DNA of 60,038 bases from Escherichia coli (lineage in GTDB: Bacteria; Pseudomonadota; Gammaproteobacteria; Enterobacterales; Enterobacteriaceae): NCBI RefSeq assembly GCF_003991155.1, contig NZ_CP031296.1. One strand, given 5' to 3'. The stretch's first letter is position 1; every line of letters starts with the position of its first letter. Positions 1-12,000 of the stretch are shown here, piece after piece. Made by a program: the position numbers.

Positions 1-3000
1 CTAGATAATACTGTTTGTGTGGTTTATTCGATCGTGTGAGTGGGTGTATGCAGTCAAAAAAACTTTTTTGAATATATAAAATTCTGAATTTCTGATTTTG
101 TAAGGTTTTGTATGGGAAACGTCAGTAAAGAAGGGGCTTCACTAGCTGTCCTGAAAACGATTTTGAAGCTGTCACAGATGTGTGCTGAATCAAAAAGGAA
201 ACGAGCCAGGCTTGAACATCGTTGATCGATTGCGCCCATGCTGCTAAATTTGCAGGCAAGTTTTCCGCGATTTGTAAATGCAGAAAACGAGGTGCTGAAA
301 TTTTGTTCAAGAACGTAAGTTTCAGATAAAGAAAACCCCCGTAATCTCGTCTTTTCCAGGGAGCGCAGATTAGCGGGGGTTGACCTCAAGGCAGAGCCTT
401 GAGCTGATAACATTTTATTTCAGGTAATCGCTTACTACCTGAAGTGGAGTTTAATTCCATGAGAAGGAAATATCAACTCTTACAGTGCAAGCTAAGTGCA
501 GCTTGCTGTGATTAGCAAACGTCACTGGTCTGAACTATCACCGGAAGAGCAGGTCCGTTTCTGGCAGGACTACGAAGCGGGTATTGAAAGCTCATTCCTG
601 GTCCCCCTGGAAAACAAAGGCGGAACAACAAAACGTCGCCGGGGTGAACATTCCACTAAGCCAAAGTGTGAGAATCCAGCCTGGTTCCGTCCCGACAACT
701 ATAAGGCGCTGGGCGGACAGTTGGGCCACGCTTACAATCGTCTCGTTAAAAAAGACCCGGTCACTGGTCAGAACACACTCAGAATGCACATGTCGTTGCA
801 TCCATTTTATGTACTGAAACGTCAGAGTGTCGGTCGCAAATATAAATTCCGACCGGAGAAACAGCGGCTGCTTGACGCAATATGGGTTGTACTTGTGAGT
901 TTTTGTGATCGTGGATTGCACACTGTCGGCATGTCTGTCTCCCGCCTGGCAGAAGAAATAAGCCCAAAAGACAGTAAGGGAGACGTGATTCCTGAAACCG
1001 CAGTCACAGTATCGCGCCTTTCCCGTCTGCTGGCAGAGCAGGTTTCCTTTGGCACGTTGGGAACGTCAGAAAAGACGATATGGGACCGTGAATCCCGCCA
1101 GCGACTGCCGAAATACGTCTGGATCACCGAAACTGGCTGGAAAATGCTGGGAGTTGATCTGGTGAAACTTCAGGAACAGCAACGTAAACGCCTTGCAGAA
1201 AGTGAAATCCGTCTGCAATTGATTAAAGAAGGCGTTATCCGCGAGGGCGAAGAAATCTCTGTTCACTCGGCTCGTAAACGCTGGTATGCGCAGCGTTCTC
1301 TCGATGCCATCAAGTCCCGACGTAAGAAAGCAGCGGAGCGCAAACGTGCTAATCGCCTGGCAAAACTGCCGTATGATGAACAGCGAAACGAAATTGCGCG
1401 GTTTATTCTGAAGCGTATGCCGCCGGACGAAGCGTACTGGTGCACTAAAGAAAGATTAGAGCAACTGGTAGCCAGAGATCTACGTCAGCTTGAACTGGCT
1501 CTGACAGCTTCGCCACCCCACTAGTTTAGCTGCCTGATACAATCGGCACTCTCTTCAGCCCCTTCGGGGCTTTTCGTGTTGCCTGCATTTCATGAAATTC
1601 CTCATATTTGACGACCGTTTTTCATTTTGTCCCGCTCTGACAGTTTTTTGATGGCCGCAATAGGGTATCGGAGTAAAAACGCCTTCGGTTATCCACAAAA
1701 ACCCGCAAAGGAATAACTTCAGAAAGCAGCAAACATAGAACATCAAACCCGCAATATATTCTTAACCCCTGTTCTTTAATCCCCTGCGTTGCTTCGCCGC
1801 AGGGAAAATATTTATCTTTGAAACAACTGTGGATAATCACAAAAATGCCTTCGCTTGCAGCGGCTAACGCCGCGCCGCTCAGAATATAAAAGTACCTCCC
1901 ACCGCTTCGCGGCGGGCATACGGATTTCTGCCCAATGAAAAACAAAGCCCCTCCAACCCTCCTACAAAAAAACGCTGCAAATACTCAGCCACAGCGCCCA
2001 ACCCATCACTGAAAAGCGCCGCCGCCCCCGCCCAAAGGGCGGGAACAACATCGCTTTCAATAATGGATGTTGTAACTAAGAAATCTCATCGCTGTCAGCC
2101 TTCTGGCTGGAAGTACCAAATACACGCTCGTAAGCGGCCCTGACGGTCCGCTAACGCGGAGATACGCCCCGACTGCGGGTAAACCCTTGTCGGGACCACT
2201 CCGACCGCGCACAAAAGCTATTTCATGGCTGAAAGCGGGTATGGCTTAGCAGGATGGGGATGGGTAAGGTGAAACCTATCAATCAGTACCGGCTTACGCC
2301 GGGCTTCGGCGGTTTTACTCCAGTAACATATGCAACAACGGAGAGCCGCCTTCCATGCCGCTGGCGCGGCATCAAAAAAGAAAGCCCCCCAATGACGGGG
2401 GAAATAGCGTTTTGATCAAAATAATAATGCTAGTGTGCTTCTTGCGTGCCATTCCAGGCACAAACTAAATTTAACGTTTCGTTAACTACAAAGAAATCCG
2501 ATGAGTTAATCACTTGCGAAATAAAAATCATATAGTAAATTACTATATGATTTTGCGTTGTTTCGGAGAATTAAAAAATGCCTTTGATTGAATACATCAA
2601 CAAGTTCTATCGGGGGAATCAGGCATCGTTCGCCAGGCTGACCGGAGTTCAACCTGCGCAGGTAACACAGTGGATCAACAAAGGATTCATCGTGGTGAAT
2701 CACACACTGTATAGTCCACGCCGAAAGCTGGGAATTTAATTCCTGGTCAATATTTGACATCCTCCACGCCCTGAAGGACGGGGATATAAGGCGCACTGTA
2801 TCCTGTTGTCTGGCAGAAAAAAGAAAGCCCCGTAGTTAATTTTTCATTAACCCACGAGGCGATCCCAATGCTTCAACAACACCAGGATAGACTTTTACCG
2901 CCCTTTACGCAATACCATGTATTTTCAAGTTTCTGGTCGATATATAATGTTGTTGGCGCTTGAGGCTTTCTGCCTCATGGCGAAAAGGTGGTTTGTATCT

Positions 3001-9000: not shown

Positions 9001-12000
9001 AGAATTGTAAGGACGGCTACACCATCAAGACGAAACGTTGATATAAAGGAATGCGCGACCACTCCAATAATTGCCAAGCAGAGACATAAATAAATGAAGA
9101 CGTTTTTGTTGCGTTGTTTTTTTTGTGCGCGATCATGATCATCTATGATTGCCAGTATCTTTTCTGGGGTTGGTTGAGCCATTTTTTTTCCTTATCAGGG
9201 ACACGGAGTGTTTAATTACATAGCTTTACATTGTAAAGCTATGTTTGTCTTTACGATGTAAATGATGAGATGTGCAGTTAAAAGTGTCAATCAGGTATCA
9301 TATAGTAAAACACTATATGATTTTCTATGTATCACATGCATAGCGATAAAACTGGATAAATGATTTACACTGTAAAGATTGAACTGTCTTTACAGTGTGT
9401 TTCATAAGTCATACGAATGAAATAATTTGCTTTTGTGTGTATGCGTGTGTATAATTGTTTTCAGGTTAGGGAGGACATATGAAATCTGCTGACCTGTTGA
9501 AAGAACTGATAGCTGCTGGTTGCGAGTTGAAACGGCATAAGGCAAGCAGTCACCAGATATGGTGGTCGCCAATAACAGGAAAAACTTTTCCTGTTCCTCA
9601 TCCTAAAAAGGACTTGCCGCTAGGTACTGTCAGATCGATCAAAAAAATGGCGGGGATTTAATCCCCGCCGACTTTGGAGGTAGCCATGTTCTTTTCTGTT
9701 GGTGTCGAAACACCGAAAGATGATCATACAGCATACGGTATCACCGTTCCGGTTTTTGATTGCTTTGATTTTGGATGTGTTTCTGCTGCTGATTCTCAGG
9801 CAGAAATACCCGCAATGGCGCGTGAAGCGATATTGGCAATCGTGGAAGAGATGGTAATAAGCGGTGCTCATTCTGTTGATGATATTCATGATGAAGGGTG
9901 TTTGACTTATTCCGCCAACCCAAATTATAACCACTGTGATAGCTGGTTTGTAATTGATGTTGATTTGTCAGAAATTGAGGGCAAACAACAACGTATTAAT
10001 ATTTCATTGCCTGATGTATTGATTCGTCGTATTGATGGATATGTGAGAGAAAGTGGTGGCGTATACAAAGATCGTAGCCATTTTCTGGCTCAGGCGGCAC
10101 GTCATGAACTTGCATATAAATAAAACTATCCCCGCGTTGTGCGGGGATTTTTTTTGATAGCTAACCGCTCGCCGCAGTCCAGCGACCGAGCATAGCGAGC
10201 GAGCGACGAGGAAGCGGAAGATCCACCGTTGCCAGGAGAAAAGCAGGTACGCACTATGCGTTCTGCCCTAGTGATGCTTTCACAAACCACGCAGCCTGAA
10301 CTATTACGCCATGAATCCAGCGCAAATCGGCATCACGATTTTCTTTTTTCATTTTTTCGCCACTTAAAGCCTTGCTTACGTGACTTTTTACCAGATTTTC
10401 GTGTAATTCTTTTGCTTCTTCAATTGTGAAACCACCAGGCAAATTTGGCGCTTCTGCTTCCAGTGATGCCAGAGCAATTTCATAAGCCCGGCGCTCAATA
10501 TTGTCTCGCACGTCCAGGCTGCCGATTCGCTCCCTGATTTCTTTAATTAGTTTCTTGTCGTCGTCGGTAAAAGTTGTCATTAGTGACTCCTTTTCATATC
10601 TATGGTTTTCTTGAATCAATTTCGTCTAGTTTGAGTTTTATATTTTGCTGGTCTGATTTTGGTAATTTTCTCATGCTCTCTTCAGTTATTTTTTTCATAT
10701 CAAGAAAAGCTCTTGCATAGAAGCGCAGGCTTGCCTCTTTTTCATGTTGTGCAACATACCAGGTTGCGCCAGAAAATGCCGCAGACAGGCATAATGTGCA
10801 CAAGGCACAAATTGCAATGGCTGTTCTTGTACTGAAGGGTTTTACAGCCTTAGATAATGACTTCAACTTTTCTTCATATAATTTGTTGTTTTTTTCCTGG
10901 TTGCGTTTAATTCCAGATATGAGTTCAATAATATCATCTGTTAATTTTTCTTTTACCTCAATACTTGTTTCTTTTAGATCGTTTTTTCCCTCTTCTACTT
11001 TTTCTTTTATTTCATTATCCAGATCGCCGCACGTCTCAACAATATTCTTGAATCTTTGAATATAGTCATTTTCTACAGATGAAACGACCTGTCTGAAGCC
11101 CTCAGACAGGGCTGTGAAGTTAGCTTGTAACTCATTGCTGAATTTTTCCTGTATCTTTTGGTTCAGAAAAATTAATGAAATAACTGGATCATCTTTTGAT
11201 ATTTTATGCCCTGTCTCCTTGAATACATCAACAATAAAATTATCAATATCTTCACTGGAAACAGCCTTTTCAGGCTGTTTTAATTCTGGCTGATTAACTG
11301 TACTCATATTATTCACCGTGTTCATCGTCATAGATGCTATCTAATTGTTTGTAAATGTCATTGAAGACTCGTTTTAATCGTGATTTAGCCATTAATCCAA
11401 AATGGTCGGACTCAAGAGCTTCTTTCAGTGTTAGTGATTTTTCTGTTAGCTCTTTGATGTCAGAGGCAAAGGCATCACTTTTTCTGTCCTGAATAACCAC
11501 AACGCCAGCGATTACATCCTTGTTTTTTTCAATGAATTTAGTTTCTATTAATGGGATATTTTCAAGTGCTGGAATACCCTGAAATTCATTTATCCAGACA
11601 ATAAGTTTTACCTTACTTCCTTTAACCAGTTCTTTCAGTTCTTCAAATCCCTGCAAGGTATCCGCAAGAGCTTGTCCACCAACGATAACAGTATGGATAT
11701 AAACGTCTTGTTCTACATCTTCAAACATGTCCATAACACAGTTATCATTGAAATACTGAATTAACGGTAAAAATGTAGATGCGCCATTGTCAATAACAAA
11801 AGTATTCTGACTATTGGTCAGCATTGATTCGAACATTGGATCGAATTTGGATTGTATTACTTTGCTGTTTTCAGTGATTTGTATCAAATCTGCATTTAAT
11901 CTTTTTACTTTAACCGTAGTTGTATTAACCGGGTCTGTGTCACCGACTACGATATTATCCATGTGATTTTCATCAATAAAGTATTGTGCCAGTATTGCGG

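Follow-up and report, generated by a model that had tools for sequence, protein, structure and literature searches.

The question raised by this locus is why one and the same 25-bp palindrome stands at two distant places on a plasmid backbone, and which regulator would read both copies. The stretch analysed here, called the window throughout, comprises 60,038 bp of Escherichia coli contig NZ_CP031296.1. By megablast against PLSDB the whole window is an IncI2 conjugative plasmid (MOBP, MPF_T, ~60 kb), 97-99.6 % identical to pHSSH22-MCR1, pEC507_2 and similar plasmids; mcr-1 is carried mainly by IncI2 plasmids. The first palindrome, O1, precedes a small gene for a 53-aa helix-turn-helix (HTH) protein, and the second, O2, lies between a yafA-like gene and the toxin-antitoxin genes hicAB. 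The reading that we propose, with a probability of about 0.62, is that the 53-aa protein is a standalone repressor of the Aca5 family, which would regulate its own gene from O1 and have at O2 a second operator in the yafA/hicAB region.

Two copies of one palindrome and the gene behind the first

The window has exactly two copies of the sequence ATCATATAGT-N5-ACTATATGAT, at 2527-2551 and 9297-9321, where a preliminary description of this DNA had also placed them, and allowing up to three mismatches brought no further match in the 60,038 bp. The chance expectation was estimated from 100 dinucleotide-preserving shuffles, and no match was present in any of them. O1 (ATCATATAGTAAATTACTATATGAT) is a perfect 12+1+12 palindrome of 25 bp with the spacer AAATT, and its core at 2530-2548 reads as the 7-N5-7 repeat ATATAGT-AAATT-ACTATAT; O2 (ATCATATAGTAAAACACTATATGAT) is a 10-N5-10 palindrome with the spacer AAAAC and the core ATATAGT-AAAAC-ACTATAT at 9300-9318. 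The flanks of the two sites are unrelated and the sites therefore share a motif, not a duplicated segment. The GATTTT that had been noticed after both copies is present but trivial, GAT being part of the palindrome and just TTT being shared beyond it. As had also been described, O1 stands directly ahead of the HTH gene, whereas hicAB follows O2 only loosely and has a proximal promoter of its own. A terminal inverted repeat of an insertion sequence, the origin that the preliminary description had named as fatal to its proposal, was checked and rejected: there are two copies only, in unrelated flanks, with no transposase nearby, and the motif recurs before aca5-like genes of phages.

We considered whether the two copies could work as nucleic-acid hairpins, either as weak intrinsic terminators or as single-strand DNA structures in the transferred strand, a view that fits their RNA folds of -13.4 and -10.2 kcal/mol (z = -6.3 and -3.6) and the TTTT that follows both. 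The stems, however, consist of A/T only, where an intrinsic terminator would have a G+C-rich stem before its U tract, and the terminator scans flagged neither copy; it is the half-site sequence, beyond mere pairing, that is conserved across homologous loci, and the motif is found upstream of the start codon in promoter-like sequence. Neither site is a known RNA element, because Rfam, searched over the whole window, gave sok as its sole match. A function as hairpins is hardly credible to us.

The gene behind O1 (2578-2739, plus strand) starts 26 nt after the end of the palindrome, with the ribosome-binding site GGAGA at 2566-2570, and it is taken as standalone because no open reading frame (ORF) lies between O1 and its ATG. 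The candidate promoter from our own hexamer scan, TTGCGA-16-TAAATT at 2514-2541 on the plus strand (8 of 12 consensus positions), is overlapped by O1, and an alternative candidate that also matches at 8 of 12 positions, TAATCA-18-TATAGT, spans 2507-2536 on the same strand. By analogy with other Aca proteins, for which autoregulation has been shown experimentally, including a Pectobacterium Aca5 (PMC9410906), O1 would be the negative autoregulatory operator of this gene, and binding across its own promoter would keep the level of the repressor low.

The preliminary description had further supposed that the HTH protein connects control of the hok-adjacent region with that of hicAB. The hok side of this proposal was not borne out, hok/sok being self-contained (Rfam sok at 2954-3125), and in one IncI2 variant (L022; the loci compared are numbered with an L) an IS605-family (OrfB/TnpB) element occupies 17032-18240 of that locus, between hok and the aca5-like gene. 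The hok/sok leader of the window carries a 197-bp tandem partial duplication (2788-2912 and 2985-3109, 125-nt copies, 89 % identical) that is not present in pHSSH22-MCR1.

The 53-aa protein and the operators of its family

Copies that are 100 % identical to the 53-aa protein are encoded on about 520 plasmids, in whose records the gene is mostly unannotated, and homologues that share 60-87 % identity with it are encoded by prophages of Pectobacterium, Klebsiella and Salmonella, by phages and by one Vibrio plasmid. The alignment of the protein family is conserved. Compared with a Pectobacterium prophage copy (L003), the gene differs at a proportion of 0.71 of synonymous sites (pS, near saturation) and 0.09 of nonsynonymous sites (pN), with a ratio of nonsynonymous to synonymous rates (dN/dS) of about 0.05. 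Judged from these alignments, the ORF is a real gene under purifying selection.

The lead to Aca5 came from genomic context: the homologue closes a two-gene operon in several phages and prophages, where a gene of ~155 aa stands before it. Aca5 was reportedly discovered in an arrangement of this kind, as the last gene of an operon behind an anti-CRISPR (acr) gene. Published Aca5 sequences were taken for comparison from the supplement of Shehreen et al. 2022 (PMC9410906), which together with Marino 2018 and Pinilla-Redondo 2020 covers the family, the reference protein being WP_039494319.1 of Pectobacterium carotovorum. By BLASTP the 53-aa protein matched this reference at 46 % over 39 aa (E = 4e-12), and WP_050101207.1 and WP_109463512.1 at 49 % over 51 aa (E = 4e-17 and 3e-18), while hhalign aligned the family profile with the published Aca5 proteins at a probability of 99.8 % (E = 2.6e-29, 56 columns). 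A search of PDB sequences with the 53-aa protein gave nothing significant. The AlphaFold model (predicted local distance difference test score, pLDDT, 88.9) has helices at 3-11, 15-22 and 26-35 and a C-terminal beta-hairpin, so that the predicted fold is of Cro-like architecture.

The protein thus shows homology to Aca5 and falls, with its 53 aa, within the 51-88 aa of these small HTH proteins; like theirs, its gene has an inverted repeat in or at the core promoter, namely O1, with a half-site of different sequence. Aca5 genes stand downstream of an acr gene in one operon and the window copy is solitary, but standalone Aca5 homologues are already recognised in the literature, so that the missing acr gene is compatible with membership. 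In its sequence and size, in the type of its fold and in the geometry of its operator, the 53-aa protein is an Aca5-family member.

Linkage to an acr gene is seen in close relatives, L009, L010 and L014, which stand behind an AcrIF11-like gene. The ~155-aa genes upstream of the homologues belong to one family; a weak precomputed Pfam match of the L009 gene is the only database support for AcrIF11, which Pfam did not confirm when run on the ~155-aa genes; published reports of linkage between acrIF11 and aca5 point the same way. Operons of a ~155-aa gene and an aca5-like gene extend over 9531-10159 in L009, 2522-3171 in L010, 2511-3168 in L013 and 907-1507 in L014. They sit in the lysis / Q-antiterminator moron region, and the ~155-aa family has a conserved H-x-S near the N terminus and the block W..Q...G..A..LG[YF]D....DE.G..Y. 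In L009 a gene for Aca2 (YdiL) lies directly upstream of the operon. Two Pectobacterium odoriferum prophages (L007, 9726-10004; L008, 989-1267) have instead a 92-aa gene of no assigned family, which overlaps the start of the aca5-like gene behind a promoter with two inverted repeats and is by its position a candidate for an anti-CRISPR or anti-defence gene.

For every homologue we inspected the 160 bp ahead of its operon, and all loci were scanned for ATAWAGT-N5-ACTWTAT. In L003-L011 and L014 the homologue operon has one or two copies of this motif directly upstream, and the rest of these 6-20-kb loci is essentially free of it. The loci represent about ten unrelated contexts (the edges of P2-like prophages, lambdoid phages, a Providencia phage, the Erwinia phage phiEt88 and a Vibrio plasmid). 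Selection is taken to act on the motif, given that its flanks cannot be aligned and that the genes are saturated at their synonymous sites. Starting from the operator itself, a scan of IMG/VR with CATATAGT-N5-ACTATATG returned 37 loci. All four with enterobacterial G+C content and an A/T-rich spacer (L028, L047, L050, L057) have the start of an aca5-like gene ~25-45 bp away; the remaining 33, low-G+C contigs with arbitrary spacers, are probably chance matches.

The published Aca5 consensus is ATAatCaa(N3)TtGatTAT and the operator of P. parmentieri is ATAGTCA-GTTTT-TGACTAT (PMC9410906). The repression tests of that study, which included scrambling of the P. parmentieri operator, established that Aca5 represses its own promoter via the inverted repeat, experimentally for this Pectobacterium protein only. 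The ATATAGT-type sites share with the published operator the 7-N5-7 geometry, the outer ATA...TAT and the A/T-rich spacer. Homologues with the recognition helix QVTKW instead of QVTQW (L012, L013) have the canonical operator ATAATCA-N5-TGATTAT, and L015, also with QVTKW, has a third operator variant; this suggests that protein and half-site have co-varied. The earlier proposal that the 53-aa protein is the cognate binder of the palindromes is strengthened by the Aca5 homology, by the same type of palindrome before homologues in unrelated phages, prophages and plasmids, and by the geometry of the validated operator. The 53-aa protein is very probably the binder of both O1 and O2 and strongly favoured as such, and it is most likely as a dimer that it would occupy the 7-N5-7 repeat ATATAGT-N5-ACTATAT.

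A solitary homologue of this kind could also act mainly in trans, repressing the acr-aca5 promoters of incoming phages. Such an 'anti-anti-CRISPR' role, compatible with the reading proposed here, has been suggested for solitary Aca homologues (PMC9410906), and promoters before the AcrIF11-like genes of phages and prophages do have near-identical operators, for example CATATAGTAAATTACTATGTA in L009. As the main role of the protein we consider it unlikely; it would leave a conserved O2 on the plasmid itself unexplained.

The second site between yafA and hicAB

O2 lies within the 296-bp region between hicA and a divergent yafA-like gene (8739-9182, minus strand), beginning 114 nt from the start of the latter and ending 157 nt before the hicA ATG (9479). 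Two candidate promoters were found at O2. The rightward one, TTAAAA-17-TATAGT at 9278-9306 on the plus strand (9 of 12 positions), has its -10 in the left arm of the palindrome, and the leftward one toward yafA, TTGACA-17-CATCAT at 9262-9290 on the minus strand (10 of 12), has its -35 at 6 bp from O2 and is conserved as TTGACA-17-CATTAT in pHLJ111-101. The core of O2, ATCATATAGTAAAAYACTATAT, is invariant among IncI2 variants with 84-94 % identity in the intergenic region, and also in lineages whose YafA protein is just 60-73 % identical.

Two plasmids help to separate O2 from its neighbours. pEC4115, a related MOBP plasmid, has near-identical HicA and HicB (WP_000833471.1/WP_000466317.1, compared with WP_000833470.1/WP_000466318.1 of the window type) behind the same proximal promoter, and O2, yafA and an aca5-like gene are all missing from it; repressor and operator are co-absent there, in a single example. 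With its cassette free of the palindrome, this plasmid rules out that O2 is part of the hicAB cassette. pHLJ111-101, of a common IncI2 type, keeps O2, followed by a truncated hicB' that lacks the ribbon-helix-helix (RHH) domain and has no hicA, and the promoter overlapping O2 is the sole usable rightward candidate upstream of this hicB'. We also discarded the notion that the operator belongs to yafA, since the IncF-type yafA homologue (L019) has no such site. Our conclusion from the sequence comparisons is that a second operator, conserved and specific to the backbone, is present at O2.

The two main IncI2 types, with hicAB and with hicB', lose their homology at 9324, directly after the palindrome. 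This speaks for the view that O1 alone is functional and O2 a hitch-hiking relic of no regulatory role, for instance an orphaned promoter/operator that a lost aca5-type operon left at a recombination joint. No gene starts directly downstream of O2, and other members of the family have operators at their own operon only. Both 10-bp arms, however, are perfectly kept while the neighbouring sequence varies, including in the lineages of divergent YafA, and on either strand candidate promoter hexamers coincide with O2; a decayed second aca5-like ORF was looked for near O2 and no remnant was found. An origin as a relic strikes us as unlikely.

A different binder would be a second way to account for palindromes at both sites. 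It could be HicB, an RHH protein that is described as autoregulatory (PMC11878559) and is encoded close to O2, the CopG-like (ParG-like) RHH protein encoded at 4048-4332 (minus strand), or a host factor, and RHH regulators are indeed encoded nearby. Yet O1 has no link to hicAB, plasmids with an RHH-less HicB retain O2, the hicAB cassette of pEC4115 has its proximal promoter only, and in phages the palindrome accompanies aca5-like genes where those other proteins are missing. An assignment of O2 as the autoregulatory site of HicB was rejected on the first three of these grounds. For the RHH protein, moreover, another palindrome, OpB, is the better candidate family of sites. We rate a different binder as highly unlikely.

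OpB (CTTTAC-N3-GTAAAG) gave 13 matches with up to three mismatches, compared with 4.1 expected, and no shuffle reached 13. Its copies are usually paired, ~25 bp apart, and stand between the CopG-like gene and parA (4360-4374), upstream of parA (about five copies in 5083-5192), upstream of a HicB-like gene at 8366 (8218-8257) and on both sides of O2 (9224-9238 and 9249-9263; 9363-9377 and 9386-9400), the copy at 9386-9400 having been read from the sequence and not returned by the scan. OpB is present in pHLJ111-101 and in L021-L023, and not in pEC4115. It may be the centromere or the regulon of the ParG-like RHH protein, and it is context here, distinct from the Aca5-type operator.

Returning to the Aca5-family repressor, O2 may control the rightward transcript (hicAB or hicB'), the yafA promoter or both. 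The rightward promoter is favoured because O2 would then cover a -10 element, as at site 1, and some effect on yafA is expected. The link to hicAB drawn in the preliminary description is plausible and at the same time ambiguous, given the separate proximal promoter, the cassette without palindrome in pEC4115 and the candidate yafA promoter nearer to O2. We infer the following course of events. O2, 6.7 kb from O1 and inside the divergent yafA/hicAB control region, would lie in the leading region of the plasmid, covering the -10 of the rightward candidate toward hicAB (hicB' elsewhere) and abutting the -35 of the yafA candidate. If the transfer order follows from the position of oriT and nikAB, past ~12.5 kb in the window, the recipient would receive the O2 region first and the repressor gene, at 2.5 kb, later. 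The promoter or promoters linked to O2 might then be active upon arrival and fall silent as the Aca5-like protein accumulates.

Several observations speak against the two-site regulon so proposed. Pfam and NCBIfam gave only sub-threshold HTH matches for the 53-aa protein (YdaS, DicC, Fis, MerR) and did not identify its family, and the top Foldseek matches of its model, all of them HTH or Cro proteins, were none of them significant for such a small protein. No acr gene adjoins the IncI2 copy. The promoters assigned at O1 and O2 are weak consensus matches, with 8-10 of 12 positions, and a stricter promoter scan at site 1 found nothing. The regulatory target of O2 is uncertain, because it stands 157 nt away from hicA, which has its own promoter. 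Second operators outside the own aca operon were seen neither in the whole phiEt88 genome nor in the 20-kb prophage loci, and second-operon regulation has been described for every Aca family other than Aca5 and Aca7 (bioRxiv 10.64898/2026.07.27.740549).

The genes at this site have features of their own. The yafA-like gene, a possible target of O2, encodes 147 aa with hydrophobic stretches that are read as predicted transmembrane segments; a homologue is named 'Protein YafA' in one source, and no Pfam or PHROG family was found for it. On the plus strand, hicA (9479-9661; Pfam HicA_toxin, E = 1e-15) and hicB (9686-10123; Pfam HicB_lk_antitox, E = 1e-26) follow the proximal promoter at 9427-9455, TTGCTT (9427-9432)-17-TATAAT (9450-9455). 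Transcripts reading through from O2 may reach these two genes as well. A G+C-rich hairpin at 9649-9669 between the two genes and a terminal terminator at 10128-10148 after hicB match the published 'HicA^T B' architecture with internal terminator (PMC11878559). The same study characterises hicAB on the IncI2 plasmid p45, and its text contains no coordinates of mapped hicAB transcription starts. The truncated hicB' of pHLJ111-101 (L016, 3242-3540) encodes ~99 aa, the N-terminal domain, and is followed by an OpB pair and the shared terminator; this arrangement without hicA is found in a large class of IncI2 plasmids, and beyond yafA pHLJ111-101 has a further, separate hicAB, whose ORFs overlap. 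It is a matter of speculation that a HicB N-terminal domain without HicA could neutralise the HicA of a competitor plasmid.

Comparison with known regulators and the plasmid context

With Aca5 the system shares full-length homology, a small HTH protein and a 19-bp 7-N5-7 inverted repeat with ATA...TAT at the core promoter, and members of its subfamily stand downstream of AcrIF11-like genes. It differs in that the IncI2 copy is solitary, with no acr gene, in its half-site, ATATAGT as against ATAATCA or ATAGTCA, which correlates with QVTQW versus QVTKW, and in a second operator 6.7 kb away beside genes other than acr. According to Shehreen et al. (PMC9410906), aca5 homologues that stand alone seldom have the canonical motif. 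Aca11, Aca13 and Aca14 are likewise small repressors with similar inverted repeats at their own and at another promoter (bioRxiv 10.64898/2026.07.27.740549), but their second operon is adjacent and holds anti-defence genes, whereas the second site here is remote and lies beside a toxin-antitoxin system and a gene for a membrane protein. Lambda Cro and YdaS-type proteins resemble the 53-aa protein in their three helices and beta-hairpin, in a palindromic operator that overlaps the promoter and in weak YdaS/Cro sequence matches, and differ from it in that no partner repressor of CI type and no lysis-lysogeny switch are present; the Pfam matches are below threshold, so that membership is not established.

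KorA (IncP) and ArdK (IncN) are global repressors of plasmid leading or establishment regions. The proposed regulon resembles them as a backbone repressor acting on several promoters, with a burst on entry and a subsequent shut-off; here, however, there are two sites only, and the likeness is a functional analogy in which no sequence relationship is claimed.

Around the two sites the window carries repA (496-1524), pcnR, a ProQ/FinO gene (3434-4030), the CopG-like RHH gene followed by parA (4406-5071, minus strand), and a block of small plus-strand genes at 5.6-8.6 kb. In this block G+C-rich repeat modules of ~430 bp (5239-5672, 7236-7670 and 8285-8326, and also 6245-6339; copies 93-98 % identical) each stand before a small gene. 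These modules presumably resemble the repeated single-strand promoters or CUP-like elements of plasmid leading regions.

Published work on IncI2 plasmids has dealt with hicAB (PMC11878559) and with pcnR (PMC8053102), and in neither text are the palindrome and the 53-aa gene mentioned; the PcnR paper (PMC8053102) gives three predicted IncI2 regulators, and the 53-aa gene is not among them. Nothing relevant came from literature searches on the operator sequence or on IncI2 in combination with anti-CRISPR. Within the searchable literature, the ATATAGT half-site subfamily of Aca5 appears to be unreported, as does a remote second operator beside non-acr genes for Aca5. The near-universal presence of the aca5-like gene on the IncI2 plasmids of PLSDB, with the ~520 identical copies set against an IncI2 total that was not counted, likewise appears to be new.

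The findings place a regulator that the published IncI2 work on PcnR and HicAB did not consider, and a proposed two-site regulon that now becomes testable, on a clinically important plasmid. They add to Aca5 a new half-site specificity with a candidate specificity residue (TQW versus TKW), and offer a possible reason why standalone Aca5 homologues rarely show the canonical motif, those examined here having a variant one. More tentatively, IncI2 plasmids may have co-opted an Aca5-family repressor as a backbone regulator, its remote operator timing a post-conjugation burst from the yafA/hicAB (or hicB') region. If this were true, it would be the first Aca5 regulon reaching past its own operon and would link Aca-type regulation to plasmid competition mediated by toxin-antitoxin systems, with yafA or hicB' becoming candidates for anti-defence or anti-addiction genes. 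A functional O2 would add an extra layer of control beside the hicAB module that drives the competition between IncI2 plasmids.

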